Source of the DNA: Planctomycetota bacterium
GTDB taxonomy: Bacteria > Planctomycetota > UBA1135 > UBA2386
Assembly: GCA_965228735.1 (NCBI GenBank)
Contig: OZ245838.1
Location: forward strand, 1,696,001-1,760,000
DNA length: 64,000 bases
Direction of reading: 5' to 3'
The notes beneath the pieces are model-generated. The model was not told where the DNA came from. It worked only from the letters and a program-made list of their open reading frames with translations, and searched no databases. This document shows, one piece after another, positions 1 to 62,570 of this stretch. Positions within the stretch are counted from its first letter, which is position 1; each line of letters starts with the position of its first letter. A program made the translations under genes and the position numbers.

Positions 1-855
1 GACATGGACGTGCTGAACGCGGACGGGATCGAGATCACGAGCCTCGACGTCCACAGCAGCGCCAACGTGGGCACGGCGTTCGCCGTCGACCTCTATCTCA
101 CGAGCGGGACCTACGCCGGCAACGCGCAGACGGGGTTCCGCTGGACGTGGCTCTCTACGTTCACCGGCACGAGCGCCGGTCTCGGGACGCCATCGCGCGC
201 GACGCCGCCGGCATCGATCTACGTCGCCGAGGGCGACTACGGGGTCGCGCTGCACTATCGGGGCACACCCTTCGAATACACGAACGGCAACGGCAGCAAC
301 CAGAACTACGCCAACGCGGACCTCGCGCTCGCCCTCGGGATCACGCGCGGCACGACGCTCGGCGCGCCGTTCGGTCCAGGCGCCGCGTTCAGCCCGCGCG
401 TCTGGAACGGCGCGATCTGCTACGACAAGTGCTCGTTCAGCGGCACCGCGGGTTTCGGCTTTGCTGGCGCAGGCTGTCCCGGCACGCTCGGCGTTCCGCG
501 GCTCACGGCGACGAGCAACCCGATCGTCGGCTCGACGCTCGACCTCACCGTCGACCGACTGCCGCAGAACGTCGCGCTCATGATCCTCGGGCTCGACAAC
601 GACACGTGGGCCGGCGGCGCGCTGCCCGTCGAGGGCACGCCGATCGGCGCCCCCGGCTGCTGGCTGCGCGTGAGCGACGACGTGACGCAGCTGCTGTTCG
701 GCAGCGGGAACGCCGCGAGCTGGTCGCTGCCGATTCCGAACACGCCGGCGCTCGTGTGCTTCACGTTCTTCCAGCAGGCCATCGTGCTCGATTCGGCGGC
801 GAACCCCGCGGGCACCGTCAACTCGAACTCGGCGGCCGCGACGGTCGGCAACTGA
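1..855 (+). CDS. Secreted protein, 5'-partial, with a C-terminal beta-rich domain (GxGCPG...PIPNxxxL...FQQA) shared with other proteins in this window
   Basis: Frame is open from the window start, stop at 853-855; Gly/Thr/Asn-rich extracellular composition. Confidence 0.75.
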   Translation, partial: DMDVLNADGIEITSLDVHSSANVGTAFAVDLYLTSGTYAGNAQTGFRWTWLSTFTGTSAGLGTPSRATPPASIYVAEGDYGVALHYRGTPFEYTNGNGSNQNYANADLALALGITRGTTLGAPFGPGAAFSPRVWNGAICYDKCSFSGTAGFGFAGAGCPGTLGVPRLTATSNPIVGSTLDLTVDRLPQNVALMILGLDNDTWAGGALPVEGTPIGAPGCWLRVSDDVTQLLFGSGNAASWSLPIPNTPALVCFTFFQQAIVLDSAANPAGTVNSNSAAATVGN

Positions 856-864
856 ACGCCGACC

Positions 865-1845
865 TCAGCGTCGGCGAGAACGCGCGAGGTGGCGGCGGAC
901 GCCCTCGTCGAGCGCAGCACCGATCAGGATCACGCCGCCGACGATCGCGAACTCGAGCTGGTTGCTATCGGCGACGAGGTTGATCGCGTTCGACAGCAGC
1001 TGCATGAGCGAGGCGCCGAGCACGATGCCGAGCACCTGCCCCTCGCCGCCCCGCAGCGCCGTGCCGCCGAGGACCGCCCCGGCGATCGCGTAGAGCTCGT
1101 AGAAGTTGCCGAAGCTCGCTGCCTGGGCCGAGTTCACATCGAGCACGAACAGACAGCCGCCGAGGCCGGCCAGCAGGGAGCACGCGACGTATGCCAGCAT
1201 CGTGAGCCGTCCCGTGGGCACGCCCGCGAGCCGCGCGGCCTCGACGTTGTGACCGAGCGCGAACAGATGGCGGCCGGCGACCGTGCGATGCCAGATCACC
1301 GCGGTGACCGCGGCGGCGACCGCGAGCACGAGGAGCGGCACCGGGAGGCCGAACCCGGGCAACAGCGGGATGCGACCGGTCGCGAGCCAGCGCAGGCTCT
1401 CGCCCGTGTCGCCGAACCCCATCGTCTGATCCGCGGTGAAGTCGCGCATGATGCCGCGGTAGAGCAGCAGGCCGCAGAGCGTGACGACGAACGGCTGCAG
1501 GCGCAGCTTCACGACGCAGAACCCGTGGAACAGACCGATCCCGGCCGTGATCAGGAGCACGAGCCCGAGCCCGACCACGCCGGGCAACTGCAGGTCGCGC
1601 AGCGTCCACGGCAGCAGGCACCCCGCGACACAGACGACGGAGCCGATCGACAGGTCGATGCCGCCCGTCACGATGACGAACGCGGCGGCCAGGCTCAGCA
1701 CGCCGAACATGCCGACGCGCGAAGCCAGGTTCTCGAGGTTGTAGCCCGACAGGAACGACGAGTGCCCATCGGAATCGATCGTCAGCAACCACGTCGCGAA
1801 CGCGATCGCGAAGATGAGCACCGCGAGTCCGAGGATCTTCTTCAT
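865..1845 (-). CDS. Sugar ABC transporter permease (RbsC/BPD_transp_2 family)
   Basis: GGIDLSIGS, GRHLFALGHNVEAARLAG and YELYAIAGAVLGGTALRGGEG motifs; multiple TM segments. Confidence 0.95.
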   Translation of the reverse strand: MKKILGLAVLIFAIAFATWLLTIDSDGHSSFLSGYNLENLASRVGMFGVLSLAAAFVIVTGGIDLSIGSVVCVAGCLLPWTLRDLQLPGVVGLGLVLLITAGIGLFHGFCVVKLRLQPFVVTLCGLLLYRGIMRDFTADQTMGFGDTGESLRWLATGRIPLLPGFGLPVPLLVLAVAAAVTAVIWHRTVAGRHLFALGHNVEAARLAGVPTGRLTMLAYVACSLLAGLGGCLFVLDVNSAQAASFGNFYELYAIAGAVLGGTALRGGEGQVLGIVLGASLMQLLSNAINLVADSNQLEFAIVGGVILIGAALDEGVRRHLARSRRR

Positions 1846-17613: not shown

Positions 17614-20250
17614 CTACGGCTCCGGTCGGAGTGCCACGCTGATGCCGTTCCCCGTGTCGGAGTCGCCGCTGGCGGTCGCCGTGCGCGTTCCCGTCGCCCC
17701 GGCTCCACCGAGCAGCTCCACGTTCACGCTCAGCGCGATCCCGACCGCGTCGGGCGGCGGCAGGCTCGCGACATCGACGATCTCGGTCATGCCGACAGGC
17801 GGCGTCCACGTCGCCGACGAGGAGAAGCCGTGCGCGGTGACGAGCATCGCGCCCGCTACGGTCGTCGTCACGTCGGGAGCCGGGTGCGCCAACCCCGACG
17901 CCGTGGACGCGCCGGCCTCGACATCGATCGGACTCGCGGCATCGGCCTCGCGGAACGCGAGCAGTCCACCACCCGATCCCGTCGAGCTCGAGAACGTGAA
18001 CGCGTGCGTTGCAGGCTCGCTCGACGTCGCGATCCGCGAGTAGACGGCGAGCGAGTTCGCCGCCCCACCCGAGTTGTCCGACCGCCGGACCAGGGTCCAA
18101 CCCGCCGGCGGAGTGATCGTCGCGGTGTCGGGTCGGATCGCGATCGCGGCGATGAGCACGTCATCCGCCAGGGTGCCGACCGGCGTCGCAAGCGTCAGCG
18201 TGGTCACGCCCGAAGGCTCCGACGCGGAGGAGCTGCCCCGCAAGGCGATGCCCGCCACGGTGACCGTGATCACGGCCGCCGCATTGATCCCGGTCCCCGG
18301 GTCCGTCCCGGTGATCGTCGCCGAGCCGATCGCGACACCGGTGACGAGGCCTTCGCTGCCGCCGGCGTTCGACACGGTCGCCGTTCCCGGACTGCCCGAA
18401 GACCAGGTCACCTGGTCGGTGAGATCCTGCTGCGAGGCGTCGGTGTAGGTGCCCGTCGCGACGAGCTGCTGGGTCCCTCCGACCCCGACCTCGGTCGCCG
18501 CCGGCGACACCGCAATCGACACTAGGGTCGCTGCCGTAACCGTCAACGTGGTCGCGTCGTTCACTCCAGTGCCCGGCTCGGTTGCGGTGATCGTCGTCGC
18601 TCCGAGCGCCACCGACGTGGCCTGGCCCTCGCTGCCACCGGCGTTGGACACCGTTGCGACGCCGGTCGCCGACGAGCTCCAGGTGACCGCAGCCGTCAGA
18701 TCCTGCACCGAGGCATCCGAGTAAGTGCCGGTCGCCGTGAACTGCTGGCCGGTCCCGAGCGGAATCGAGGGCGAGCTTGGCGTGACGGCGATCGATACGA
18801 GCACGGCGGCGGTCACCGTCAGCGTCGTGCTGCCATTGATGCCCGATCCCGGCTCGGTCGCGGTGATCGTGGTGCCCCCGATCGCCGCCGAGGTCGCCAA
18901 CCCCTCGGTACCCGGCGCGTTGGAGACGGTCGCCGTGGCCGGAACGGACGAAGCCCAGGTGACCGAGTCCGTCAGGTCCTGGACCGAAGCATCGGTGAAC
19001 GTGCCGGTGGCGGTGAACGCCTGCGCCGTGCCGAGCGCGATCGACGGATCTGCCGGCGTCACCGCGATGGCGACGAGCTCGGCCGCCGTGACCGTGAGGA
19101 CCGTGTTGCCGTGGATTCCCGATCCCGGGTCCGTGGCCGTGATCGTCGCGGCGCCGACCGCGACCGACGTCGCGAGCCCTTCGCTGCCGCCGGCGTTCGA
19201 GACCGTCGCCGTCGCCGGGGCGGACGACGCCCACGTGACCGAGTCCGTCAGGTCCTGGACCGAGGCATTCGTGAAGGTGCCGGTCGCCACGAACGGCTGG
19301 GTCGTGCCGAGCGCGATCGACGGGTTGGTCGGCGTCACCGCGATCGAGACCAGCGCCGCGGCGGTGACGGTCAGCGTCGTGCTGTCGTTGATGCCCGAGC
19401 CCGCATGGATCGCCGAGATCGTGGTCGCGCCGATCGCCGCGGCGGTCGCCCGCCCCGCACTGCCGAGCGCGTTGGAGACGCTGGCGGCCGCGGGCACCGA
19501 CGACGACCAGGTGACGGCGTCGGTGAGGTCCTGAACGGTGGCGTCGCTGAACGTGCCGGTAGCCGTGAACGATTGCGCCGTCCCGAGCGCGATCGACGGG
19601 TTCGTCGGGGTGATCGCCAACGCCACGAGCACGGCGGCCGTTGCCCCGACCTCGACCGTTCCGACGATTCCCGTCTGCGAATCCGTCGCCGAGATCGTCG
19701 TGACACCGACGCCGACGGCAGTCGTGTAGCCGGCACCCGAAATGCTCGCCACGCTCGCGGCACTCGTGCCCCAGATCACCGCACCTGTCAGATCGGACGT
19801 CGACCCATCGCTGAAGATCCCGGTCGCGGTCAACTGCTGCCCCGTGCCGAGAGCGAGGGTCGGAGCCGCGGGGGTGACCTCGATCGCATCGAGCTCGGCC
19901 GGGGTGCACAGCAGCTGCGCCGAACCGGTCATCGCCGCGCTCGGGAGCTCGGCGCGGATCTGCACCTCGCCCACTGCTCGAGCCCACGCCATACCGGCAT
20001 CGTCGACCGTCGCCGTCGCGTTCGCCGAGCTGCTCCATGCGACGTCGTCGGAGACGTCGACGAGGCGACCGTCGTCGTAGCGCGCGAGCGCCGCGAACTC
20101 GGTGCGCCGACCGAGCGCCAGACCGGCGCCGTTGGGAGTAACCACCACCTCCTCGACGGCAGGGCTGTCGCGGCGCCCCTGCTGACACGCCGGCACGATG
20201 GCCGCGAGGGAGCCGACGACGAGCCAGTCAGGGACTCGCATCCGGCTCAT
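17614..20250 (-). CDS. Lipoprotein with seven bacterial Ig-like (Big_2, Lig-type) repeats and a distinct C-terminal domain
   Basis: Lipobox IVPAC; 7 repeats of ~88-92 aa (LVSIAVTP..SIALG...F.ATGTF.D....DLT..VTW.SS). Confidence 0.9.
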   Translation of the reverse strand: MSRMRVPDWLVVGSLAAIVPACQQGRRDSPAVEEVVVTPNGAGLALGRRTEFAALARYDDGRLVDVSDDVAWSSSANATATVDDAGMAWARAVGEVQIRAELPSAAMTGSAQLLCTPAELDAIEVTPAAPTLALGTGQQLTATGIFSDGSTSDLTGAVIWGTSAASVASISGAGYTTAVGVGVTTISATDSQTGIVGTVEVGATAAVLVALAITPTNPSIALGTAQSFTATGTFSDATVQDLTDAVTWSSSVPAAASVSNALGSAGRATAAAIGATTISAIHAGSGINDSTTLTVTAAALVSIAVTPTNPSIALGTTQPFVATGTFTNASVQDLTDSVTWASSAPATATVSNAGGSEGLATSVAVGAATITATDPGSGIHGNTVLTVTAAELVAIAVTPADPSIALGTAQAFTATGTFTDASVQDLTDSVTWASSVPATATVSNAPGTEGLATSAAIGGTTITATEPGSGINGSTTLTVTAAVLVSIAVTPSSPSIPLGTGQQFTATGTYSDASVQDLTAAVTWSSSATGVATVSNAGGSEGQATSVALGATTITATEPGTGVNDATTLTVTAATLVSIAVSPAATEVGVGGTQQLVATGTYTDASQQDLTDQVTWSSGSPGTATVSNAGGSEGLVTGVAIGSATITGTDPGTGINAAAVITVTVAGIALRGSSSASEPSGVTTLTLATPVGTLADDVLIAAIAIRPDTATITPPAGWTLVRRSDNSGGAANSLAVYSRIATSSEPATHAFTFSSSTGSGGGLLAFREADAASPIDVEAGASTASGLAHPAPDVTTTVAGAMLVTAHGFSSSATWTPPVGMTEIVDVASLPPPDAVGIALSVNVELLGGAGATGTRTATASGDSDTGNGISVALRPEP

Positions 20251-25357: not shown

Positions 25358-27643
25358 ATGACTACGCTACTTGCCGTGTCCGCGCCCGAGGAGCGGACGG
25401 TTCTCGACCTCACTGGCATGACCTGCGCTGCCTGCGTCGTTCGCGTGGAGCGAGCGATCCGCAAGGTGGCCGGCGTCACCGACGTCGCGGTCAACCTGGC
25501 GACCCAACAGGCTTTGGTGGCCTTCGAGGCCGGGCGAACCACGCGAGCGGGAATCACGAGCGCCATCGAGGGCGCCGGCTACGGAGTCCTGGCGGAGCCA
25601 CAGGCCGCGGCGGCAGTCGACCGCTCGGAGCACGAGCGCCAGGAGCGGCGATCGCTCCAACGGGACCTTCTCGTCGCCGGCGCGGCAACGCTCCCCCTGC
25701 TGGTGTTGGGGATGTCCCACGGTGCGCTGCCGTTCGCCGAGACCGACGCCGGCCGCACGCTCCAGTTCGCGCTCGGCTCGATCGTCCTGTTCGGGCCCGG
25801 CCGTCGCTTCCTGCGGGGCGGCCTGACCGCGCTACGTCACGGAAGTCCCGACATGAACACCCTCGTGTCGCTCGGCGCGGCCGCCGCCTGGCTGTGGTCG
25901 ACGGTCGCCACATTCGCGCCGTCCTGGTTCACGCACGGCGCGCACGAGGCCCCGCACGTGTACTTCGAGGCCGCCGGCGCGATCATCGCGTTCGTCCTGT
26001 TCGGCAAGTTCCTCGAGTCGCGCGCCCGCTGGCGCCTGGGTGACGCGGTCCGCGCCCTTCACGCCCTGGAGCCCGCGGTCGCGCACCGAATCGACGACCT
26101 CGAGGAAGGCACCGACGTTGACGTGCCCGTCGCGTCGTTGCAGCCTGGGGATACGGTCCGGGTGCGGCCCGGAGAGCGGGTTCCGGCGGATGGCGTCGTC
26201 ACGGACGGCGAGTCGGCGCTCGACGAGTCGATGCTGAGCGGCGAGAGCGTGCCGATCGACAAGGCCATCGGCAACCAGGTCGTCGGCGGCAGCATGAATA
26301 CCACCGGGGTCCTGCTCGTGCGGATCCAGCGCACCGGTGCGGAAACCGCGCTTTCGCGGATCACGGCTGCCGTCGAACAGGCTCAAGGCAGCAAGGCGCC
26401 GATCGCCAGGTTCGCCGATCGCGTGAGCGCCGTCTTCGTTCCAATCGTGTTGGGTCTTGCGCTGATCACGTTCGCCACCTGGTGGCTGCTCGACCCAACG
26501 TGGACCGGCGTCGCCACGGCCGTCGAGTACATGGTCGCCGTGCTGGTGATCGCCTGCCCATGTGCGCTCGGCCTGGCCACCCCGGCTGCGGTCGCCGTCG
26601 GCGCCGGCCGAGGCGCAGAACTCGGCGTGCTGTTCCGGACCGGTGCGGCACTCGAGGCGGCGAGCCACATCGACGCGATCTACCTCGACAAGACCGGCAC
26701 GCTGACCAACGGCCGCCCGTCGCTCGTCGCCATCGAACCGCACCCGGGCACAACGGAGGAGCAGCTGTTACGCGAAGCGGCTTCGATCGAACGGGGCAGC
26801 GAGCACCCGTTCGCCCGCGCCGTGGTCGATGCAGCCCGCGAACGGGGTGTCCGGCTGGCCATCGCCCATGACTTCGCCGCCATCCCCGCGATGGGCGTGC
26901 GCGGCAGAGTCGAAGGCGCGGAAGTGCTGGTCGGCAAGGCCGATTGGCTGGCCGAGCAGGGTATCGACGTCGCGCCCGCAATCGCCGCCGGCAGCGAGCT
27001 GGCAGACCGCGGAGTGACGCCACTGCTGGTCGCCCGCGACGGCCACCTGAGCGGGGTGCTCGGGGTTGCCGATGAGCTGCGGATCGATGCCGCCGATGCG
27101 GTTCGGCAGCTGCGTTCGGCAGGCGTTCGGGTCGGCATGTTGACCGGCGACCGGCGAGCCGTTGCCGACGCGGTCGCGGGCGACCTCGGTCTCGATGAGG
27201 TCGCTGCAGAGCTGCTCCCCGAAGACAAGGCGGAGCGAATCCAAGTGGCTCAGGCCGAAGGACATCGGGTGGCAATGGTCGGCGATGGCGTCAACGACGC
27301 TCCGGCCCTGGCCGTCGCCGACGTCGGGATCGCGATCGGCACCGGGACCGACGTCGCCGCCGCGGCCGCGGACGTCGCGCTGCTCCGAGGTGGGATCGCC
27401 GGTGCCCCAGTCGCCCTCGGGCTGGCCCGCGCGACGATGCGGACCATCCGTCGCAACCTGGTCTGGGCCTCGGTCTACAACGTGCTCAGTATCCCCGTCG
27501 CTGCCGGCGCTCTGTCGGGGCTGGGCGTCGGCCTGTCGCCGGTGTATGCCAGCGCCGCGATGTCCCTCTCGAGCGTGTCCGTCCTCCTCAGCAGTCTGCT
27601 TTTGCGGCGCTTTCGCGTCGCCAACGCAACAGGTGTTCGATGA
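25358..27643 (+). CDS. copA: Copper-translocating P1B-type ATPase
   Basis: MTCAAC, YFE, CPCALGLATP, DKTGT, SEHP, GDGVNDAP, YN and MSLSS motifs. Confidence 0.97.
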   Translation: MTTLLAVSAPEERTVLDLTGMTCAACVVRVERAIRKVAGVTDVAVNLATQQALVAFEAGRTTRAGITSAIEGAGYGVLAEPQAAAAVDRSEHERQERRSLQRDLLVAGAATLPLLVLGMSHGALPFAETDAGRTLQFALGSIVLFGPGRRFLRGGLTALRHGSPDMNTLVSLGAAAAWLWSTVATFAPSWFTHGAHEAPHVYFEAAGAIIAFVLFGKFLESRARWRLGDAVRALHALEPAVAHRIDDLEEGTDVDVPVASLQPGDTVRVRPGERVPADGVVTDGESALDESMLSGESVPIDKAIGNQVVGGSMNTTGVLLVRIQRTGAETALSRITAAVEQAQGSKAPIARFADRVSAVFVPIVLGLALITFATWWLLDPTWTGVATAVEYMVAVLVIACPCALGLATPAAVAVGAGRGAELGVLFRTGAALEAASHIDAIYLDKTGTLTNGRPSLVAIEPHPGTTEEQLLREAASIERGSEHPFARAVVDAARERGVRLAIAHDFAAIPAMGVRGRVEGAEVLVGKADWLAEQGIDVAPAIAAGSELADRGVTPLLVARDGHLSGVLGVADELRIDAADAVRQLRSAGVRVGMLTGDRRAVADAVAGDLGLDEVAAELLPEDKAERIQVAQAEGHRVAMVGDGVNDAPALAVADVGIAIGTGTDVAAAAADVALLRGGIAGAPVALGLARATMRTIRRNLVWASVYNVLSIPVAAGALSGLGVGLSPVYASAAMSLSSVSVLLSSLLLRRFRVANATGVR

Positions 27644-28233: not shown

Positions 28234-28288
28234 CGGCCTGGCGCAGTCGCGTGTCGTCGGCTGGCGTCGCAGCGATTCTCGGCCCTCG

Positions 28289-28314
28289 TGTAAGGAGCGG
28301 GGATCGGCTCCGTC
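28289..28314 (+). promoter_or_regulatory. Putative ECF promoter TGTAAG-N16-CGTC upstream of the YHS-TolC-MCO operon
   Basis: -35/-10 boxes and spacing identical to 24970. Confidence 0.65.
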
Positions 28315-28395
28315 AGCGCTTGCGTGCATGGCGCAACTCCGCGCGGCGCACCGGGCCCAGCGCCCGTCCGACGACCCGATGCCAACGAGGCTCTC

Positions 28396-33601: not shown

Positions 33602-33641
33602 GTCGATTCGTTCGGTGAAACCATGAAGGACGATTCGTGGG

Positions 33642-35259: not shown

Positions 35260-35546
35260 CAGCGCTGCTCCTTCGGCCTGTGGCCATGCATGGCGCCGTG
35301 GCCCTCGTCGCCGCCCATCTCGGCCATCTCGTTGGCCGGCTCCACCGCCTCGATCCGGTCCGGGACAGCCGCCGGGTCCGGCACGTCGAAGCCACCGCCA
35401 GTCGGCGCACTCGCGGAGGCCGGATGGTCGGGCGGCAGATCCAGACGAAACGTGCTGACGCAGGCGCCGGCACTGAAAGTGACGCAGAGCAGGGCGAGCG
35501 CCAGACGCCGGGAAGACAGGCGCGATGGCGATGGTGGTCGTTGCAT
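35259..35546 (-). CDS. Small lipoprotein with DHPAS motif and His/Met-rich tail
   Basis: SAGAC lipobox, LPPDHPAS, MAEMGGDEGHGAMHGH; stop overlaps the TolC start. Confidence 0.75.
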   Translation of the reverse strand: MQRPPSPSRLSSRRLALALLCVTFSAGACVSTFRLDLPPDHPASASAPTGGGFDVPDPAAVPDRIEAVEPANEMAEMGGDEGHGAMHGHRPKEQR

Positions 35547-35800
35547 GTTCATGGGAGGGGGTCGCGGGCGATCGCCGCAAACGATGTGCCAGGCCATGCC
35601 ATCCTGCCTACCGCGCCGAGTCGCGCCGAGATAAGCGTTGGATGGCCAATACGTTGTGTAGTCCGGATCCTCGGCGGCCGAACCCTTGCATGCCGGCAGT
35701 ACGCGCTCGAGTTCGGCACCGGTGCTTCTGGGCGGTGCACCAGCGCGGAGGCGGGTATGCACCGGAGGACCTCATTCTCTGGCCCACGCGCACCGACGCC

Positions 35801-36142
35801 TCACTTCAGGGTCTTCCAACTCTCGGCCACGAACTTGCCGTCCTCCATGGCACCGACGGTCTCGACCTTGGCGCCCTTGTCCTTGTGGGCGCACCACTCC
35901 ATCCGGCCGAGCGTCGGGTGGATCATCGGGACATACTTGCCCTCGATCAGGATGTAGTTGCCGCAGCTGCCGACGCTTTCGATCGAGCAACCGCACTTGA
36001 CGTCGTGCACGACGGCCTTGGCAACAGGGTCGCCCTGGCCCGCCGGGGCCGGCGGAGCGGCCTGATCCGGGACCTTGTCGGTCGTGCACGCGCCGAACGC
36101 GAACGGGATGGAGAGGACGAACGAAAGCAGGGTTCTACGCAT
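35801..36142 (-). CDS. Small Cys-containing lipoprotein (DUF6370-like)
   Basis: FGAC lipobox; KCGC...SCGNY...WC...GAMEDGKFVAESW; follows cusA. Confidence 0.65.
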   Translation of the reverse strand: MRRTLLSFVLSIPFAFGACTTDKVPDQAAPPAPAGQGDPVAKAVVHDVKCGCSIESVGSCGNYILIEGKYVPMIHPTLGRMEWCAHKDKGAKVETVGAMEDGKFVAESWKTLK

Positions 36143-36190
36143 CGTTGGTTGTTGGGTTGGAGGAACAAAGAAGGGGTCCAATTGCCCGTA

Positions 36191-39100
36191 TCAGGCCTGC
36201 TCGGACCGGGAAGGAGAGGCCGAGAACCGCAAGCGCAGCTCCTCGACCAACGCATAGAGCACGGGCACGACGAAGATCGTGACGACCGCCACGAGCATCC
36301 CACCGAAGGACGGAATCGCCATTGGCACCATCACGTCGCTGCCCTTGCCGGTGGAGGTCAGGACCGGAAGGAGCGCGAGAACGGTGGTCGCAGTCGTCAT
36401 CAGACAAGGGCGAATCCGGCGCTTGCCGGCAACGACCACGGCCTCACGGATCTCATCCACGTTCGTCGGTCGCCGCCGCTTGAAGCTCTGCTGCAGGTAG
36501 GTGCTCATCAACACGCCGTCGTCGGTCGCGATGCCGAAGAGCGCGAGAAAGCCCACCCAGACCGCCACGCTCAGGTTGATCGGCGAGACCTGGAACAGTT
36601 CGCGCACGTCGCGACCGAGAACCTCGAACGAGAGGAACCAGTCCTGACCGTAGAGCCAGAGCATCAGGAAGCCTCCCGACCACGCAACGAAGACCCCGGT
36701 GAAGACGAGCAGCGTCGTCGATACTCGCCGGAACTGCAGGTAGAGGATCAGGAAGATGACGAACAGTGCCAAGGGCAACACGATCCTCAACCGCTCCGTT
36801 GCGCGGACCTGGTTCTCGTAGTTGCCCGCGAATCGATAGCTCACACCTGCCGGCAGCTCGAGCTCACCCTCTTCGAGCTTCCGCTCCAGGAAGCGGCGAC
36901 AGTCCTCGACCACTTCGACTTCCGCGAAACCCGGATTCTTGTCGAAGATCACGTAGCCGGTCAGAAACGTGTCCTCGCTCTTGATGGTCTGCGGCCCGGG
37001 CTTGTAGCGCACCTCGGCAAGCTGGCCGATCGGAACTTGGGTCCCGTCCTTTGCTGCAACGAGGATTCGCTCCAGTTCGTCGATGCGGTCCCGCAACTCG
37101 CGCTGATAGCGCACCCGCACCGGGTATCGCTCACGCCCCTCCACGGTCGTCGTAATCCGGCGCCCTCCGATCGCGACCTCGATCACGTCCTGCACATCGC
37201 GCACGTGCAGCCCGTAGCGGGCGATCGCCTCACGGTCGATCTCGATCTCCAGGTAGGGCTTGCCAACGATTCGATCCGCCGAGACGGTCGCTGCGTTGAC
37301 CGACGGAACTTGCTGCAGCAGCTTCTCGATATCGACGCCGACTCGCTCGATCGTCGCGAGGTCCGGGCCACGCACCTTGATGCCGAAAGGCGCGCGCATG
37401 CCGGTTTGCAGCATGATCCGCCGCGTCTCGATCGGCTGCAGCATCGATGCCGTCGTCATGCCCGGAACCTCGGCAGCCTTCGCGACCTCGTCCCAGATGT
37501 CGTCGGGAGAACGAATGTGGTCGCGCCACTGTCGGAACGGCCGGCCGTCGTCATCGGGCACGAGCCGCCCAGCCTCATCTCGAACGAACTCGCTCTGGTC
37601 CGAGTCGTAGGCGAAACGCATCAAGTCGCCACGGGCATCGAGCCGGTACTCCGGCACGTAGTTGATGACGGTCTCAACCATGCCGACCGGCGCAGGGTCG
37701 AGGGCGCTCTCCGCACGGCCGATCTTGCCGACGACGTCCTGCACTTCCGGAACTGCTCGAATGCGTCGATCCTGGACCTGGAGCAGTTCGAGAGCTTCGC
37801 CGATCGATGCGTGGTACATCGTGATCGGCATCAGTAGAAACGAGCCCTCGTCGAGGCGAGGCATGAACTCCTGCCCAAGGCCCGGGAAGGCGTGCGCCAG
37901 ACCAGACCACGCCCTCGAGGCCTTGAGTTCGTCCGACGTCATGGCCCGTGTCTCCGTATCGGAGACCCAACCCGCGACCGACATCCCTGCTCTGCTCACG
38001 GCTGAGATGGTGTCGGGCACGAACGCGAACACGCGCCCGAAGCCGAACCAGATCGTCGCACCGAGCAGACACAAGAATGCAGGAGCAGTCAGGAAGACCA
38101 GTTTGTGCGCGAGGCACCACCGCAACAGCGGCTCGTAAGCCCACTGCACCAAGCGGAAGAACAGCAGGAATCCTCCAACCAGGACGAGCGTGAAGACGAC
38201 GTTGCCGACCGACTGCTCGGGCCCGAGCGGCGCCCAGGTCGATGCCAGCAGCACGCCGGTTGCAATCGCCAGCAACGCATTCACGCCCCAACGCAGGGCG
38301 GCTGCCATACCGTCCGGCATGCGACGCTGCACTTCTCTCCAGGTGAACAGGGCCGCAACGACAGCTGCCGCCCACCAGGCAACGAGCCACCCGAGGAGCA
38401 CGACTGCGCCGAGGACGGTCGCGGCGCGCGCGCGCCCAACCGTCCTGCCGCGCCCAACCGGAAACAGGAGGTGAGCGACCGGCGGAATGATCACGAGCGC
38501 GACGACGATCGATGCCAATAGTGCAAACGTCTTGGTGAACGCCAACGGCCGGAACAGCTTCCCTTCCGCGCCTTCCATCGTGAAAACTGGCAAGAAGCTC
38601 ACGACCGTCGTCAGTACCGCGGTCAGCACGGCCGAGCCGACTTCGCTGGCACCCGCTTGGATCGCGTCCTTGCGCTCCTTCGCTGTGTCGTTGGGGCGGA
38701 TCTTCCCGAGGATGCTCTCGCAGATGACCACGCCCATGTCGACCATCGTGCCGATCGCGATCGCGATCCCCGACAACGCGACCACGTTCGCATCGACACC
38801 GAACTGCTTCATCGCGATGAAGCACATCAACACCGAGAGCGGGAGCAGTCCGGAGATCAGCCCCGCGCTTCGCAAGTGCGCAATCATCAGCAGCACCACG
38901 AGTATGGTGACGAGAATCTCATCTCGTAGCGCGTCGTTGAGCGTCCCGAGCGTCTCCTGAATCAACCCGGTGCGGTCGTAGAACGGCACCACGCGCACTT
39001 GCGAGATGGTGCCGTCGTCCAAGGTCTTGCGAGGCAGACCGGCCTCGATCTCCTCGACGCGCTCCTTGACCCGCTGGATGACCGCGAGCGGGTTGGCGCC

Positions 39101-40045
39101 ATAGCGCACGACGACCACGCCACCGACCGCCTCGGTGCCGGCCTTGTCGAGCGCGCCTCGCCGCAGTGCCGGTCCACGGCCCACGGTCGCAATCTGCTTG
39201 ATCGTGAGCGGTACGCCTTCGGCACCGGTCACGGCGATCTTCTCGATGTCCTCGACTCCGCTGAGGAAGCCGACCCCACGAATCACGTACTCCGCGCGGT
39301 TGACCTCGATCGTCCGAGCACCGACGTCGCTGTTCGACATGCGAACAGCCGCGAACACCTGGTTGAGCGTTACGCCATGCGCCCGCATCGCATCAGGATC
39401 GACATCGATCTGATACTCGCTGACGTAGCCGCCGATGGATGCCACTTCAGCTACGCCGTCGACGCCCGCGAGGTTGTAGCGCACGTACCAATCCTGGATC
39501 GTGCGCAACTCGTGCAGGTCCCAACCGCCAGCCGGCGCCCCATCCGGCGTGCGTCCTTCCAGCGTGTACCAGAAGACCTGGCCGAGTGGCGTCGCATCCG
39601 GGCCGAGCGTCGGCTGCACTCCTTCCGGGAGGGTCCCGCGCGCCAAGCTGTTGAGCTTCTCGAGCAGTCGCGTGCGCGACCAGTAGAACTCCACGTCGTC
39701 GTCGAAGATGACGAAGATCGACGAGAACCCGAGCATGGAGCTGCTACGGATCGTCTTGACACCAGGGACCCCCAGCAGGGCGACGGTCAGAGGGTAGGTG
39801 ACTTGGTCCTCGACGTCTTGCGGCGACCGCCCAGGCCAGGATGTGAAGATGATCTGTTGGTTCTCGCCGGTATCGGGGATCGCATCCACCGGGACCGGCG
39901 ACCGCGGAACGCCCTCGATTTCCCAGTCGAACGGGGCCACCAGCACGCCCCACGAAGTGACCAGGACAAACAGCAGGCCAACGACAAGCTTGTTGTCGAG
40001 GCAGAACCGCAGGAGACGATCGAGCAAGCTCGGGCGGTCGCTCAC
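36191..40045 (-). CDS. cusA: CusA/CzcA family heavy-metal efflux RND permease
   Basis: VDAIPD, WPGRSPQDVEDQVTYPL, GPDATPLGQVFWYTL, AIAIGTMVD, RIRPCLMT; Met-rich. Confidence 0.96.
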   Translation of the reverse strand: MSDRPSLLDRLLRFCLDNKLVVGLLFVLVTSWGVLVAPFDWEIEGVPRSPVPVDAIPDTGENQQIIFTSWPGRSPQDVEDQVTYPLTVALLGVPGVKTIRSSSMLGFSSIFVIFDDDVEFYWSRTRLLEKLNSLARGTLPEGVQPTLGPDATPLGQVFWYTLEGRTPDGAPAGGWDLHELRTIQDWYVRYNLAGVDGVAEVASIGGYVSEYQIDVDPDAMRAHGVTLNQVFAAVRMSNSDVGARTIEVNRAEYVIRGVGFLSGVEDIEKIAVTGAEGVPLTIKQIATVGRGPALRRGALDKAGTEAVGGVVVVRYGANPLAVIQRVKERVEEIEAGLPRKTLDDGTISQVRVVPFYDRTGLIQETLGTLNDALRDEILVTILVVLLMIAHLRSAGLISGLLPLSVLMCFIAMKQFGVDANVVALSGIAIAIGTMVDMGVVICESILGKIRPNDTAKERKDAIQAGASEVGSAVLTAVLTTVVSFLPVFTMEGAEGKLFRPLAFTKTFALLASIVVALVIIPPVAHLLFPVGRGRTVGRARAATVLGAVVLLGWLVAWWAAAVVAALFTWREVQRRMPDGMAAALRWGVNALLAIATGVLLASTWAPLGPEQSVGNVVFTLVLVGGFLLFFRLVQWAYEPLLRWCLAHKLVFLTAPAFLCLLGATIWFGFGRVFAFVPDTISAVSRAGMSVAGWVSDTETRAMTSDELKASRAWSGLAHAFPGLGQEFMPRLDEGSFLLMPITMYHASIGEALELLQVQDRRIRAVPEVQDVVGKIGRAESALDPAPVGMVETVINYVPEYRLDARGDLMRFAYDSDQSEFVRDEAGRLVPDDDGRPFRQWRDHIRSPDDIWDEVAKAAEVPGMTTASMLQPIETRRIMLQTGMRAPFGIKVRGPDLATIERVGVDIEKLLQQVPSVNAATVSADRIVGKPYLEIEIDREAIARYGLHVRDVQDVIEVAIGGRRITTTVEGRERYPVRVRYQRELRDRIDELERILVAAKDGTQVPIGQLAEVRYKPGPQTIKSEDTFLTGYVIFDKNPGFAEVEVVEDCRRFLERKLEEGELELPAGVSYRFAGNYENQVRATERLRIVLPLALFVIFLILYLQFRRVSTTLLVFTGVFVAWSGGFLMLWLYGQDWFLSFEVLGRDVRELFQVSPINLSVAVWVGFLALFGIATDDGVLMSTYLQQSFKRRRPTNVDEIREAVVVAGKRRIRPCLMTTATTVLALLPVLTSTGKGSDVMVPMAIPSFGGMLVAVVTIFVVPVLYALVEELRLRFSASPSRSEQA

Positions 40046-41991
40046 TTGCCACCCTCCGCCCGCGTCTCACCCACCGGTCCAGCGACGGGCAAGAACTCAC
40101 TCCGCGCCTCGCCGCAGACAAGCATCGCGGCGCCGAAGTACGGATTGTGAATCGTGCCCTTCGGCTGCAGCCAGGCCGCCCCCTTGTCATCAAAGGCCAT
40201 GGGGCAATACGCCTCGATCCAGACAGCTTCGCCGACATGGCCGAACATGCGCTCCAACGCCAGCACGTCGCGCGCGAGCGCTTCAAACGCCACCCGCATG
40301 GCCACGATGTCACCGGCATCCTGCATGGCTGACAGCGCCGTGGCCAACGAGGCCCGTTCGTCCTGCCACCGCTCCCGCGCAAGCCCCGCAAGCGCTTCGT
40401 CCCTGACGCCCGGGAGAGCAGCCACGAGGGCCGCGAGTTGCACGCGAGCGGTGTCGAAGTCATCGTCGCCGAGCGCTTTGGCTACGCCGAGGTACGACTC
40501 GTAGATCGCAGCCAGTGAAGCGCGGAACACCGTGGTCTCCGATCCAGTCCACCGCTCCGCCTCACCAGCCTGCGACATCATGCTCGGCTTGGCCTGGATC
40601 TGCATCGCACTGTCGAGGCGAAACGCCCCATTCACGACTACCAGCTCATTCTCCCGGACGCCCGAGCGCACGATGTAGTCGTCGCCGGCCCGCGGACCCA
40701 GCACGACCTCGCGACCCTCGAAGGTCGGGGCGTCGCCCTTTCGGACCTGGACGTAGACGACTCCGCGCTTGCCGGTCACCAGGACAGCAGTCGAAGGCAC
40801 GAGCAAGGGCTTCGGCGCGTCCTCATCAACGGCATAGCCGAGCTGCTCCGCGGGCACGAGGTCCATACCACAGACGTCGCAGGTGCCAGGACCATCCTTC
40901 ACGACCTCGGGATGCATCGGGCTGATCCACTTGCCCGCGAGACGCGAGTCCAGGACGGTTCCTCCGTCACCGATACGGGAGCGCACGACGCCTCGCACGA
41001 ACATGCCGGGCTTGAGCCGGGCGGACTTGTTCTCGACATCGACACGAACCGCGACGGTGCGGGTCCGCTCGTCCACGACCGGCGCGAGGAACGAAATGCG
41101 CCCCTCGAACGACTCGCCCGGAAGAGCTTCGGCGAACAGCGTCACGCTCTGTCCGTATCGCAGCCAGGGCAGATCCTGCTCGTACGCCGCGAGTTGCACC
41201 CAGACCTTGCTGAGGTCGGCGATCCGATACACGGCCACGCCTTCCTTGACGTAGTCACCTTCGTTCTTGTGCTTCTCGATGACGACGCCACTGACCGGTG
41301 AGCGAATCAACATGTGATCCTCTGCCGCCCCTCTGGCCTCGACTCCGTCGACCTGCGCTTCGGTTAGCCCCCAAAGCACGAGCTTCTCGCGCGCCGCGCG
41401 ATAACTCCGCTCGCTGCTCTCCTTCAGGAAATCGCTCGTCGAATCGGTCGCCTCGTCGATCCGCTTCTTGGCTTGCAGCAGCTCCTGCTGAGCGACCAGC
41501 AAGTCCGGGCTGTACAGAGAAACCAGGTGGTCCTCCCGCTGCACGGCAATGCCTGTGTAGTCGACATAGAGCCGGTCCAGCCGACCGGCGACGCGGGCGG
41601 CAACGGATCGCACCCGCGTCTCGTCGAAGTCGATCTTGCCGACCATCCGAATCGGCATGGTTGCGAAAGACCGTCGCACCGGCTGCGTCTGGATCTGGGC
41701 GAGCTCCGCCGCCTCCGCAGACAGCTTGATCCGATTGGGCCCCGGATCGTCGCCGGGCACCTTTGGCACCAGATCCATGCCGCACTTCGGGCAAGGGACG
41801 TTGGACGGCAACACGACCTCAGGATGCATCGGGCAGGTCCAAAGCGTCGGGCTACCGCCGCCCCCGCCTGCGGGCTCAGCCGAGTCTGGACCAGGCGAGT
41901 TCGGCCACCAATCGGTGCTGACGCGGCCGACCAGAACGGCCAACAGCACGACGCCGAGCAAGGCGAGAAACAACGCGATCTGGCGAATCAT
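40042..41991 (-). CDS. cusB: CusB-family RND periplasmic adaptor with heavy-metal-binding domains and a C-terminal DUF3347-like domain
   Basis: WTCPMHPEV..CPKCGMDLVP, LYSPDL, RLKPGMF, SPMHPE..CDVCGMDL, YCPMAF..NPYFG..MLVCG. Confidence 0.93.
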   Translation of the reverse strand: MIRQIALFLALLGVVLLAVLVGRVSTDWWPNSPGPDSAEPAGGGGGSPTLWTCPMHPEVVLPSNVPCPKCGMDLVPKVPGDDPGPNRIKLSAEAAELAQIQTQPVRRSFATMPIRMVGKIDFDETRVRSVAARVAGRLDRLYVDYTGIAVQREDHLVSLYSPDLLVAQQELLQAKKRIDEATDSTSDFLKESSERSYRAAREKLVLWGLTEAQVDGVEARGAAEDHMLIRSPVSGVVIEKHKNEGDYVKEGVAVYRIADLSKVWVQLAAYEQDLPWLRYGQSVTLFAEALPGESFEGRISFLAPVVDERTRTVAVRVDVENKSARLKPGMFVRGVVRSRIGDGGTVLDSRLAGKWISPMHPEVVKDGPGTCDVCGMDLVPAEQLGYAVDEDAPKPLLVPSTAVLVTGKRGVVYVQVRKGDAPTFEGREVVLGPRAGDDYIVRSGVRENELVVVNGAFRLDSAMQIQAKPSMMSQAGEAERWTGSETTVFRASLAAIYESYLGVAKALGDDDFDTARVQLAALVAALPGVRDEALAGLARERWQDERASLATALSAMQDAGDIVAMRVAFEALARDVLALERMFGHVGEAVWIEAYCPMAFDDKGAAWLQPKGTIHNPYFGAAMLVCGEARSEFLPVAGPVGETRAEGGK

Positions 41992-45418: not shown

Positions 45419-46600
45419 CTACCGCACCAGCGACACCCCGGGATTCGTCGCCTGCGTCCCGGTGACCGGTCCGAAGCACGCTGCCTGCCAGTGCAGGCGG
45501 AAGCCCCGCAGGCCCGGATTGTTCGGCACGGCGACGGCTCCCGTGACGGGCACGCCCTGCTGCTGCTGGCCGATCGCGACGAACACGTGCACGCTCGCGT
45601 CGAGCCAGAACGGGTCCATGAAGCCGGCGACGTTGCTCTTCACCCCGGGCAGACCGACCACGAGCACGACCAGATCCCCGACCTCGGTCTCGACCGCAGC
45701 CTGCAGGGTGCCGCCGAGTGGCGCTCCGTCAGCCACGAGCGCGGGCATCACATCGTCCGCGAGTTCCTGCGGGAGCACCATGTTCGAGCTGAACAACGTC
45801 GCGCGCGGCGAGACGCGCGACATCCCGACCGGCTGGATCGCGCTGCCGCCGAAGACCGGCTGTCCCGAGCCGGCGCTCACGATGCCGCCGCGAACCGCGC
45901 CGGCGACGACCCGCAGGCTCGCAGCATTCAACCCGATACCGTTGCCGGGCTGGTCCGCGGCGGGGCCGCCGATCCGACCATCGCCGCCTTCGATCACGGT
46001 GCTCGCCCCGGCGACCACGAGCGTCCCGTTCCGGCAGAACACGGCCGTCCGGCCGTTGCCGTTGGCCATGAGGTAGCCCTCGCCGCGAACGGTGCTGCTC
46101 TCGATCGTTGCATGGGTCGTGTCGAGCCCGACCGTGCAGAGGATCCGACTGTCGCGAATCGCGAGTTGGTCGCACCTGGTCGCGGAAATGCCGACCGCGT
46201 GGCTGAACGGCAAGGCATAGAAGCCGCCCGGGTGCGTGATCCGCTCCACCAGGACCGCGCCCGCGCAATCCGTGAGCTGCAGCAGTCGTTGGCCGCCGGT
46301 CGGAGCTGTCCAGGTCAGTTCGCGAATCGTCACGGCCTGGGCAACCGCGGTCGTATCGATCTGCACCTCGCCGGTGACTACGGCCCCGGGCTCCCCGAGG
46401 ATCGAGAGACCCTTGCCCGACATCGAGAACGCCTGGTAGTTGCCGGGCCGGACGATCAACACGGCGCCATCGGGAACGGCGGCGACGGCCGTCGGCAGAC
46501 TGGTGTAGTGCGACCCGGCCCCGCCATTCGCGTCGACGACGAACGTCTGCGCGGTGAGCGCGGCGAGGCAGAAGAACGGCGCGACGACTCGTGCAAGCAT
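45419..46600 (-). CDS. Secreted protein (beta-helix-like N-region) with the shared C-terminal domain
   Basis: Signal peptide then QTFVVDANGGAG..YTSLPTAVAA..LIVRPGNY; ends VPNNPGLRGFRLHWQA..TNP. Confidence 0.75.
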   Translation of the reverse strand: MLARVVAPFFCLAALTAQTFVVDANGGAGSHYTSLPTAVAAVPDGAVLIVRPGNYQAFSMSGKGLSILGEPGAVVTGEVQIDTTAVAQAVTIRELTWTAPTGGQRLLQLTDCAGAVLVERITHPGGFYALPFSHAVGISATRCDQLAIRDSRILCTVGLDTTHATIESSTVRGEGYLMANGNGRTAVFCRNGTLVVAGASTVIEGGDGRIGGPAADQPGNGIGLNAASLRVVAGAVRGGIVSAGSGQPVFGGSAIQPVGMSRVSPRATLFSSNMVLPQELADDVMPALVADGAPLGGTLQAAVETEVGDLVVLVVGLPGVKSNVAGFMDPFWLDASVHVFVAIGQQQQGVPVTGAVAVPNNPGLRGFRLHWQAACFGPVTGTQATNPGVSLVR

Positions 46601-53725: not shown

Positions 53726-54790
53726 ATGATCCAGCAGCTCCTCTTCGGCGCCCTGTCGCCGGTCCTGTTCGTCGCGGCCTCGGTCGCGCAGTCGTTCAAC
53801 ATCGACATCCACGAAACGCCGAGCACGCCGCCGCCGGCGTCCTATGGTGGCTACCCGGCGCAGCCCGGGACGTGGAACAACCTCTCTGCCTTCACCGGCG
53901 CGCCGATGCCGCTCGTCGACCTCGCTGGTCTGCCGACGACGAGTCGCGCGTGGTTCAGCACCCTCCCGTCGGCCTCGTCCGTGCAGCCGGGCATTCCCGC
54001 GCCGGACACCGAGCTCTACGAGGACTTCGCTGCGACGGACTTCGTCGCGCAGCTCTCGATCGACAACCTCGCCGCGGGGAACTACGTCGCGGTCGTCTAC
54101 TCCTACTATCCCAACGTCTCGACGGGGTTCACGGTGAACGCCGGCGGCACCGCGCAGTCGGCGAACGTGAGCTGCCCGCCGACGTTCCCCGGTCACCAGG
54201 TCGGCTCGACGTTGCGGTCGTTCCAGTTCTCCCTGACCGGGCCGGCGTCGACGATCACGATCGACTTCGCGTTCCTCAGCGGCGAGGGCGGCGTGTTCAA
54301 CGGCGTGCAGTTGGTCCAGTACATCGGCACGCCGGGCTGCCAGAACCAGCCGCTCAACAGCAAGGGCGCGGTGCCCGCGATCGCGGTCACCGGCAGCCCC
54401 GCCGCGAACGACATGGTGCTCCATGCGGGCCTGCTGCCGGGTCCGGGCCAGTTGCCAGACGGCGTCGGTGCGATCCTGTGCTTCGCATCCAACGTCGGCG
54501 GCACGGTGTTCCAGGAGGTCTGCCCTCGCGTCGGCTCCCGCTGCATCGGCAACCCGGTCGTGCGGGTCTTCGATCCGAACGCGCAACAGGGAACCGGCGG
54601 CGTCGGCGTCACGACGAGCTTCGGCACCTACGACCTGCCGATCGATCTGCCGTCACTCGCCGCGCTCGGACTGAACGTCTCGCCCGGAGCGACGCTGCAC
54701 TTCCAGATGATCTACCGTGACAACGACGTCCTCGGCGTGTGCGGTCAGTTCGTCGCCCGGTGGACCCAATCCGTCAGCGTGCAGCTCTGA
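53726..54790 (+). CDS. Secreted protein with the shared C-terminal domain variant
   Basis: Signal peptide..AQSFNID; GTPGC..NSKG...PGATLHFQMIYRD..WTQSVSVQL. Confidence 0.78.
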   Translation: MIQQLLFGALSPVLFVAASVAQSFNIDIHETPSTPPPASYGGYPAQPGTWNNLSAFTGAPMPLVDLAGLPTTSRAWFSTLPSASSVQPGIPAPDTELYEDFAATDFVAQLSIDNLAAGNYVAVVYSYYPNVSTGFTVNAGGTAQSANVSCPPTFPGHQVGSTLRSFQFSLTGPASTITIDFAFLSGEGGVFNGVQLVQYIGTPGCQNQPLNSKGAVPAIAVTGSPAANDMVLHAGLLPGPGQLPDGVGAILCFASNVGGTVFQEVCPRVGSRCIGNPVVRVFDPNAQQGTGGVGVTTSFGTYDLPIDLPSLAALGLNVSPGATLHFQMIYRDNDVLGVCGQFVARWTQSVSVQL

Positions 54791-59394: not shown

Positions 59395-59411
59395 CGACCG
59401 CGCGGCGTCGT

Positions 59412-61107: not shown

Positions 61108-62034
61108 ATGGCCACCCCCGCTGACTCATCGCCACCTCGTTTCCTCGTCGCATTCGACTTCTCCCGGACAGCCGAAGCGCACGTCGCATACGCGGTACGC
61201 CTGGCCAACGCGCTCGGCGCGCAATGCACCGTGCTCCACGCCGTGCCGCCACCCGAGACCGCGGTGGTCGGCGCCGTCGACCTGATCGACGCGCCACCAG
61301 CCACCGACGTCGCGGACGTTCGGCAGAGCCTGACGACGTTCGTCGAAGGGCTGAGCGCCGACCGGCCGGTCGAGGTCGAGGTCACCACCGGCTCGTCACC
61401 GGTCACGGCGGTGCTGTATGGCGCCGAACGACTGGCCGCGGACCTCGTCGTCCTGCCCTCGCACGGGCGCTCCGGCCTGAGTCGCCTGGTGCTCGGCAGC
61501 ACGGCCGAGCAGATCATGCGCCGTTCGACCAGACCGGTGCTGCTGTTGACCGATCGCATGCTGGACAACGAGTCGGATCCGACGACCGCGAAGCGACCCG
61601 TCGTTCTGGCGACCGACCTGTCCGAGACCGCCCGCTTCGCCCACCAGCCGGCTGCCGAACTGGCGCGCCGCCTCGGGCTGCCGCTGCAGGCGCTCTCGGT
61701 CGTGTCCGCGGTCGAGCCTCTGCCCTACTCCCCCGGCGCGCCCGTCAGCCCGCCGCAACCCGATGCTGCAACGTTGATCGAACACTGGGAGGACCAGCTG
61801 CGGCAGGCGACCCGCGGCCTGGGCGGCGGTACCGACCCCGACATCCGGGTCTTGATGGACGATGACGTCGCCACGACGATCGTCGATTCAACCGCCGCGG
61901 CCAACGCGTTCCTGCTGGTGCTCGCGACGCACGGCAGGCGCGGCATCGAGCGCATGGTCCAGGGCAGCGTCGCCGAGCAGATCACGCGCAACTCGACGGT
62001 GCCGGTGATCTGCATGCCGGCCAAGACGAAGTGA
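61108..62034 (+). CDS. Universal stress protein (tandem USP)
   Basis: VAFDFS, SHGRSGLSRLVLGSTAEQI, ATDLS, THGRRG..GSVAEQI. Confidence 0.95.
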   Translation: MATPADSSPPRFLVAFDFSRTAEAHVAYAVRLANALGAQCTVLHAVPPPETAVVGAVDLIDAPPATDVADVRQSLTTFVEGLSADRPVEVEVTTGSSPVTAVLYGAERLAADLVVLPSHGRSGLSRLVLGSTAEQIMRRSTRPVLLLTDRMLDNESDPTTAKRPVVLATDLSETARFAHQPAAELARRLGLPLQALSVVSAVEPLPYSPGAPVSPPQPDAATLIEHWEDQLRQATRGLGGGTDPDIRVLMDDDVATTIVDSTAAANAFLLVLATHGRRGIERMVQGSVAEQITRNSTVPVICMPAKTK

Positions 62035-62057
62035 TCGTCGGGCGGTCCGCCGAGCGC

Positions 62058-62570
62058 CTACTGGATCGTGACCTCGAGCACGCGCGTGAACGTCGGCGTG
62101 CCGCCGTGGATCGAGAAGCCCTGGAACGCGAGGGTCGCACCCGTGAGCTGGGTCGGCAGCGTGAAGTTCTGCAGGATGCGGTCGCCGCCCGTCGCGTTGC
62201 AACTCGTCGTCGAGAGCGCCATGAGGGAGACGTCGAGCGCCGCGACGAACGTGAAGCTCGGCGCCGGGTTGAGCATCAGCGAGTTGCCGATGCCGCCGAA
62301 CGCGATCCCGGGGCACGCCGCGACCGCCGGGAAGATGCTCACCATCAACGCGCCGAGCGCGCCCGCATCGCCCTGGATCTGGTAGGTCAGCTGATCGCCG
62401 GCCGGCGCGGTCACCTGGACGACGTTCGCCGGGTCGGCGCAGTCGAAGCCGCAGCCGCCGTGGATCTGGCTGCCGGACGGGCCGGAGATGACGGACAGGA
62501 AGCCGTACTGGGCCGGGAGGGCGGCGGTGAGGGCAGCAGCAGCGAGGATCGCGAGTGGGGTCTTGCTCAT
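62058..62570 (-). CDS. Small secreted protein consisting mostly of the shared C-terminal domain
   Basis: Signal peptide..LPAQ; GGCG..; LPTQLTGATLAFQG..FTRVLEVTIQ. Confidence 0.75.
   Translation of the reverse strand: MSKTPLAILAAAALTAALPAQYGFLSVISGPSGSQIHGGCGFDCADPANVVQVTAPAGDQLTYQIQGDAGALGALMVSIFPAVAACPGIAFGGIGNSLMLNPAPSFTFVAALDVSLMALSTTSCNATGGDRILQNFTLPTQLTGATLAFQGFSIHGGTPTFTRVLEVTIQ

Follow-up and report, generated by a model that had tools for sequence, protein, structure and literature searches.

Known terminal tags and the module described here

The C-terminal domains (CTDs) of type 9 secretion system (T9SS) substrates are immunoglobulin (Ig)-like, form the extreme C-terminal end of hundreds of proteins exported by Sec, occur in one copy and share low pairwise identity; their type A in Bacteroidota is covered by PF18962 and TIGR04183. 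Non-covalent attachment to the envelope, from either terminus, is known for S-layer homology (SLH) domains and for S-layer or coat proteins of Ig-like fold, and stand-alone copies exist. Here we analyse a terminal domain, hereafter the module, found on four proteins (A to D) encoded in a stretch of 64,000 nucleotides (the window) from a Planctomycetota bacterium (GenBank assembly GCA_965228735.1, contig OZ245838.1, positions 1,696,001 to 1,760,000, forward strand). An earlier note, made from the letters of the window alone, had proposed that these secreted proteins end in a common beta-rich module of the kind known from T9SS CTDs or from SLH- and dockerin-style anchors.

The module resembles T9SS CTDs in these traits, its Ig-like fold and Sec export being predictions. 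However, it is ~130 residues long compared with the 75 model positions of PF18962 (Por_Secre_tail), carries an insertion pinned by cysteines, gives no profile match to that family and is also found N-terminally and alone. SLH domains are helical and triplicated, whereas the module is single and beta-stranded. Dockerins (PF00404, NF041540) are, like the module, single terminal tags on diverse exported proteins, fill the same slot on the same passengers and have replaced the module throughout one lineage (genome G015, see below). The two have no sequence match, and the module is modelled as an all-beta sandwich with a disulfide, in contrast to the calcium-binding hand repeats of dockerins. PEP-CTERM/exosortase systems (PF09721) and LPXTG-type signals likewise have many signal-peptide targets per genome that are poor in basic residues (PMC1569441), but the module lacks the tail of motif, transmembrane segment and basic residues, and exosortase is present in only 8 of 13 module-positive genomes. 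By these comparisons the module appears to work like a dockerin or a T9SS tail, but by the sequence tests it belongs to neither, nor to PEP-CTERM.

The module is a real, very large and unnamed family of terminal tags. It occurs in a single copy, at either end of its carriers or alone, has a covarying cysteine pair, is borne by proteins of low charge and is exchanged for other tails. We give a probability of roughly one half to the reading that it stays uncleaved and docks its carriers at the cell surface, as the functional counterpart of the dockerins of Planctomycetota.

Throughout, G000 denotes the genome of the window (7.19 Mb; 5,238 genes by home-made gene calls) and other G numbers denote compared genomes. 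Signal peptides were read from the sequence and with a home-made heuristic.

Four proteins with tails of one family

All four proteins were found at the coordinates originally given, with the endings as quoted. Protein A (1..855, + strand) is the 3′ end of a signal-peptide protein of 661 residues, with a gene start 1,130 bases ahead of the window; it contains 0.3% lysine and 3.5% lysine plus arginine. Its module (448..852, +; 135 residues, A-type, with the Cys10/Cys71 pair) seeded both alignment A1 and the structure model. Protein B (45419..46600, − strand; 393 residues) belongs to a passenger cluster of 12 genes and joins a signal peptide to a passenger whose NosD-like match is weak and falls below the cutoff. 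The module of B (45422..45757, −) comprises the last ~112 residues, lacks the cysteine pair, matches the A profile with E 6e-12 and has a tail score of 37.5 bits. Protein C (53726..54790, + strand; 354 residues) has a signal peptide, an unannotated passenger and a module (54317..54787, +) of a divergent subtype, X, of which C is the only gene found in G000. Protein D (62058..62570, − strand; 170 residues) consists of a 21-residue signal peptide followed by the module alone (62061..62507, −; divergent A-type), has no lysine at all, and fits the description of a protein that is almost only signal peptide and module. The tail score of its module is 14.6 bits, while only 1 of 4,995 reversed controls reached 12 bits, and a paralogue lies at genome positions 6577282-6577794. 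As had been suggested, B, C and D, where the start is visible, open with hydrophobic segments that look like signal peptides ending in A-Q, and A, B and C carry unrelated passengers (best BLAST E 0.006 over 59 residues). The genome mean is 3.2 modules per 64 kb, so with four modules the window is average and not enriched.

The last 150 residues of A to D gave no pairwise BLAST alignment (best E 0.25), and their kinship therefore rests on profiles. Hidden Markov models (HMMs) iterated from A and from B retrieve each other's seed (E 6e-12 and 3e-23) and yield sets of 270 and 297 proteins, 259 of which are common; iteration without anchoring drifted and was discarded in favour of iteration with fixed columns. 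The D family of three sequences matches the A profile with probability 85 and E 6e-6 over 99 columns (reversed control E 0.11). C was not detected by the A or B profiles, and profile comparison gave a probability of 1.9. It is joined in two steps: C matches the X subtype of relatives (probability 96.9, E 1.3e-10, compared with E 0.38 for the reversed control), and X in turn matches modules of G278 and G024 that were found with alignment A1 (probability 96.8, E 2.2e-10), the match of X to the own-genome A profile being weak (E 0.0025 only). The predicted model of C has the strand order of A, at low confidence (predicted local distance difference test, pLDDT, 56.8 versus 97.7). Locus scans with C found none in metagenome contigs and, with C alone, none in five genomes; a scan of genome contigs with A found one weak locus.

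Judged by these profiles, the four tails are confirmed as versions of one domain, A and B directly, D by profile and C in two steps. The proposed common module thus holds at the level of profiles; as pairs the C-termini do not align significantly (E at least 0.25), and C enters through the X subtype only. From the consensus suggested for the module A departs by having a cysteine at the glycine position.

Fold and database identity

The domain comprises ~130 residues and is predicted to be an Ig-like sandwich. The model for the module of A has eight strands with a long insertion (pLDDT 97.7, predicted template modelling score 0.89), so the suggested beta-rich Ig-like fold is confidently predicted for A, while for C the strand order agrees at the low pLDDT given above. 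Among 202 scored copies, Cys10 and Cys71 are both present in 150, both absent in 34 and discordant in 18 (odds ratio 71, with a p-value that is overstated because the copies are related), and this covariation implies a disulfide. Besides the cysteines, the conserved residues are glycine, proline, one glutamine and a Ser-Asn, and the C-terminal residues form a beta strand. No column has tryptophan or tyrosine conserved above 27%, and the composition is uncharged and rich in glycine, proline, alanine and leucine, with 0.2% lysine.

Searched against Pfam and NCBIfam at E≤1, the four proteins gave no match to PF18962 or T9SS sorting models, and 61 of 61 modules had no Pfam family at E≤0.1, apart from one chance row at E 0.033. 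No relative was found among PDB sequences (best E 0.25) and no Foldseek match at E≤0.001; the Atlas returned only unnamed Planctomycetota clusters. The best structural rows were LILRB1 (Z 8.6, root mean square deviation 3.0, 92 aligned residues) and TEP1r (Z 8.4, 2.4, 87 aligned residues), and the rows in general were generic Ig, fibronectin III and macroglobulin domains with 7-17% identity. Such scores are what a common arrangement alone would give, and no functional inference was drawn from them. T9SS CTD, cohesin and dockerin structures were not among the rows listed, which excludes nothing because the lists were filled by generic Ig folds. No RNA holder was listed. A homodimer prediction of the module scored 0.00, without folded controls, and counts neither for nor against.

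These rows bear on the possibility that the module is an ordinary accessory domain which binds a carbohydrate or lipid and was spread by shuffling, with no role in localisation. Lipid binders of the GM2-activator/NPC2 type appear weakly (best E 1.2e-3, template modelling score 0.38), and CBM56 appears with Z 7.5, tied with generic Ig domains. None of the 61 members has a Pfam family, however, and there is no conserved tryptophan or tyrosine, so that the module did not turn out to be a known carbohydrate-binding domain. A strictly single copy on 100 passenger clusters and the wholesale replacement in G015 also argue against an accessory domain, which we regard as very improbable.

In the literature searched (titles and abstract openings) the domain is undescribed; supplementary files to PMC6461901 and to the Saltatorellota preprint could be relevant here. 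The words "secretion", "S-layer" and "signal peptide" are absent from the portion of 10.1101/817700 that was searched.

Family size, distribution and position

Profile matches in G000 number 318, and 359 with an added tail profile, which corresponds to 6-7% of the 5,238 genes; at its threshold of 10 bits the tail profile gave 331 real compared with 3 reversed and 2 internal control matches. Carriers account for ~9.5% of the encoded residues of G000. The domain is single in all 271 carriers scored by the A profile, with no tandem copies. A profile search of the database retrieved 29,576 protein clusters (50% identity) at E≤0.001, the module being C-terminal in the best 150 matches; a domain of at least this many clusters is without a Pfam or NCBIfam entry or a solved relative. 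It was found in 20 of 21 relatives and in 49 of 251 genomes of the phylum, most of them in its own order and in roughly twelve further families. Outside the main clade one or two copies were seen at L233-L238 (G136, G206, G238, G044), probably transferred passengers.

The passengers form 100 clusters, the largest with 102 members. Pfam searches on 72 proteins (63 top database matches and nine own genes) identified mainly kelch propellers, and further FG-GAP, BNR, GSDH, trypsin and DUF7452 domains; the conserved top match in family f9 is no more than a passenger family. Identity between modules is only ~20%. These data agree with a lineage-restricted, unannotated and apparently Ig-like terminal module on many unrelated proteins with predicted signal peptides, and in many families of uncultured Planctomycetota the module marks out the surface proteome that is predicted for them.

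The module is not restricted to the C-terminus, and one of the results that the earlier note had named as refuting its proposal is thereby partly borne out. Although 273 of the 318 matches end within 15 residues of the C-terminus, 13 are followed by a short extension, 13 are N-terminal, one is internal, and 18 stand alone or are fragments. Passengers joined to an N-terminal module are of the usual kinds, kelch, BNR and DUF7452 among them, and this arrangement recurs in G196. By eye, 11 of the 22 carriers of up to 215 residues, D included, look like signal peptide and module only. N-terminal, internal and stand-alone copies are more readily explained by a binding module that can be moved about than by a terminal signal that is cleaved off. 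Together with the extended copies they weaken the part of the earlier proposal that compared the module with a strict C-terminal sorting signal of the T9SS kind, while its other part, anchoring or docking, fits best.

Another reading is that the module self-assembles into a coat, a lattice of the S-layer or hydrophobin kind on which hundreds of passengers would be displayed and in which the stand-alone proteins would be filler. Some S-layers contain the Ig-like fold, and the ~11 stand-alone proteins, the uncharged module with its 0.2% lysine, the large share of encoded residues and a weak structural row for Deinococcus HPI (E 0.013) are consistent with this. But the module is never repeated in tandem, its copies have low identity where a lattice would need a common interface, and G015 swaps it for an unrelated Ig-plus-dockerin tail. 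We consider such a coat improbable.

Signal peptides and low charge of the carriers

The heuristic for a signal peptide followed by glutamine fires on 248 of 355 carriers and on 631 of 4,635 other proteins. Signal peptides of G000 very often end in A-Q, among carriers and other proteins, which resembles the "Q-rule" for pyroglutamate in Bacteroidota. None of the 355 carriers contains a transmembrane-like segment, defined as a 19-residue window with hydropathy above 2.3.

Carriers are poor in lysine, arginine and glutamate compared with other signal-peptide proteins, in both G000 and G196. In G000 the carriers (n = 334) have a median lysine content of 0.37% and the remaining signal-peptide proteins (n = 527) one of 2.54%, and lysine plus arginine amounts to 4.5 versus 11.7; the comparison in G196 gave 0.96 versus 4.15 (n = 38 and 181). 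The sum of lysine, arginine and glutamate is lower in the carrier than in a paralogue of the same family in 55 of 60 pairs and in 14 of 18 distinct carriers, a count from which seven paralogues with visibly divergent tails had been removed beforehand. Conversely, 291 of the 387 low-charge genes of G000 carry the module, and the others include, by eye, proteins with more divergent tails such as C, proteins that resemble pilins or flagellar proteins, and lipoproteins. PEP-CTERM and LPXTG proteins likewise have fewer basic residues, according to Haft et al. (PMC1569441). From this likeness to known surface proteins we infer an extracellular, cell-surface location of the carriers.

Two groups of low-charge proteins without the module were also seen. 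One is an 875-residue predicted lipoprotein of the window (17614-20241, − strand) with six Big_2 repeats and no lysine after residue 25, a low-charge surface protein with a lipid anchor in place of the module. The other consists of five proteins of G000 (891893, 2954019, 5690029, 5970101, 7038004) which share another terminal domain, presumably MAM-like.

Exchange of the module for dockerins and lipid anchors

Among the 120 best homologues of the PF28492 passenger, 78 end in the module superfamily (35 A-type, 43 of the X and Y subtypes), 27 have dockerin-like tails by pattern, ten of them with PF00404, and 15 have other tails, among them short or truncated ones as well as a few modules and one dockerin that had escaped the classification. 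One homologue, P0194, passes the NF041540 cutoff. As far as can be read from these sequences, the passenger family takes the module or a dockerin tail across lineages. This agrees with the notion of an anchor-style tag, as the module fills the slot held by dockerins in relatives. Two further tails occur on this passenger, an unassigned one of ~100 residues (P0217, P0220, P0247, P0272) and a short aromatic-ended one of ~30 residues (P0161, P0164, P0166).

A replacement on the scale of a genome is seen in G015, which belongs to the same order. No module was found there with three queries (a single protein, A1 and the broader A4 profile), and it is the only module-free genome found in the order. 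PF00404 gave 14 matches in G015 at E≤1e-6 and 39 at 1e-3; at E≤1e-6 it gave none in 22 and one or two in five of the 27 module-positive panel genomes, and none in G000. Of the 201 genomes of the order G015 is the sole dockerin-rich one, most of them not individually checked for the module and the class scan (E 1e-22) being too strict to reveal module losses. In 30 fetched loci (L239-L268) the dockerin match ends 14-30 residues before the stop codon, and 29 share one composite tail, which is also present in P0226. This tail consists of an unannotated domain of ~115 residues and a dockerin-like pair and was not found in G000 or G196; its Ig-like part does not match the module (E at least 0.29).

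Homologues in G000 or G196 exist for thirteen of the 30 loci. In every one of these cases the best match in one or both genomes is a module carrier, with up to 50% identity over 391 residues. The best matches in G000 are carriers in 8 of 10 cases compared with a background of 7%. G015 is in effect a natural experiment, because genes that module genomes keep and G015 has lost, or that it has gained, should reveal the receptor. It also makes the role of planctomycete dockerins that lack cohesins testable. Pfam cohesin (PF00963) was not found in 15 module-positive genomes, in G015 or in the dockerin-rich G033, and was present in 3 of 20 genomes; a partner outside Pfam is possible. For the cohesin and dockerin modules of Phycisphaerae a hypothetical "planctosome" has been proposed (PMC6461901).

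Lipid anchors are exchanged for the module as well. A carrier and a lipoprotein share a passenger with 57% identity over 585 residues, and a second pair does so with 31% over 336 residues.

Search for machinery or a partner

G000 has seven secretins, including a cluster like GspD-E-F, and three Omp85 matches; secretins are equally present in G015 and in an outgroup. Searches with SprA (TIGR04189), UPF0164 (PF03687) and PF18962 were empty, but their controls were silent too, and PorU and PorK-N were not searched as families. Omp85 matches number three, three and two in the module-positive G000, G176 and G119 and one each in the module-negative G015 and G021; the additional paralogues of G000 lie at 918258 and 6386040.

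For a comparison of gene content, 2.31 of the 2.36 Mb of the small module-positive genome G196 were set against G000, and 1,301 of 1,933 genes had a match. This gave 118 shared exported candidates, 60 of which were scanned with NCBIfam, while a Pfam scan covered 30 proteins, 21 from the candidate list. Four candidates were profiled across genomes, so that some ten unannotated ones and every multi-pass membrane protein lie outside this comparison. A giant pilin-like protein is present in 36 of 50 panel genomes including G015 and five outgroups and was rejected as machinery; it measures 1,666-1,735 residues (G000 1400802-1406009, L089:10858-15855) and the cluster that contains its gene is conserved in both G000 and G196. 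A surface lipoprotein is present in 25 of 27 positives and G015 and in none of 22 others and is only a clade marker; its family (G000 2569111-2575679, L109:14581-17400) is large and of low charge, with a propeller. A GspK-like candidate is present in 15 of 50 genomes, and a TonB-dependent receptor is present in G015 and was not found in G017 or G031. With the pilin-like protein and the lipoprotein, G015 keeps two clade-typical envelope genes. Exosortase, finally, is patchy, being present also in two of four outgroup negatives. Among the four candidates and exosortase, no gene tracks the module and is missing from G015. The co-occurring translocon or protease that the earlier note had expected from phylogenetic profiling was therefore not recovered, and a secretion system as such is not shown.

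Docking tag or export address

The module could also be a folded export address, read by an outer-membrane machine such as a type II variant or another translocon in the manner of a T9SS CTD, with cohesin-less dockerin tails as alternative addresses. The 273 of 318 copies at the extreme C-terminus, always single, agree with this, as do the presence of the module on ~75% or more of the low-charge proteome, the tolerance of ~20% identity and the approximately three lipoproteins that carry it. So do the GspD/E/F-like genes and seven secretins of G000, the short aromatic-ended tail that alone fills the slot in three homologues, and the dockerins without cohesin in G015 and G033. An address of this type is however at odds with the 13 N-terminal, one internal and ~11 stand-alone copies and with low-charge lipoproteins that lack the module, such as the one at 17614-20241 of the window. 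In addition, none of the four candidates is co-distributed machinery, and exosortase is missing from several positives. We regard the export address as rather unlikely.

Docking at the surface is suggested by the single copy, the position at either terminus, the low charge, the swaps with dockerins and lipid anchors and the lack of a transmembrane-like segment. In such a scheme the carriers would be exported by Sec, the module would fold and form its disulfide in the periplasm, and the outer membrane would be crossed, probably via the ordinary type II secretion genes present in G000. The module, still attached, would then likely dock its carrier non-covalently on the outer face of the envelope, where the partner may be a protein, a lipid or a glycan. 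We infer all steps beyond the signal peptide.

Several observations weigh against docking. An identity of ~20% with conserved residues that look structural is odd for a specific partner of high affinity, and 86% of the copies sit at the very C-terminal end, the place for an export signal. Approximately three true lipoproteins (by eye, from 12 pattern matches) carry the module, which a pure anchor would not need, and for four of the 18 distinct carriers the paralogues are no richer in charge. The dockerins of G015 and G033, having no Pfam cohesin, could be export labels. The swap in G015 is one event in a family of one genome, known from an assembly of 240 contigs with 48.6% guanine plus cytosine, and 17 of the 30 loci have no homologue in the 500 residues examined. 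The search for machinery found no receptor or scaffold, and both gene calls and signal peptides are home-made.

The module points to an unfamiliar mechanism by which a diderm envelope holds or exports proteins. A wider proposal, which we rate as unlikely on present data, is that a broad and mostly uncultured branch of Planctomycetota routes its surface proteome of at least 300 proteins per genome through an undescribed outer-membrane export-and-display system in which the module is a swappable label. One lineage would then have re-tagged its exoproteins with an unrelated Ig-plus-dockerin tail, and the cohesin-less planctomycete dockerins would be labels of the same system and not parts of cellulosomes.

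Neighbouring genes

Between proteins A and B the window contains a gene cluster (25712-41778) that by eye resembles copper or heavy-metal resistance. Its genes are presumably a P-type ATPase-like gene, two multicopper-oxidase-like genes and a large RND pump with its adaptor.

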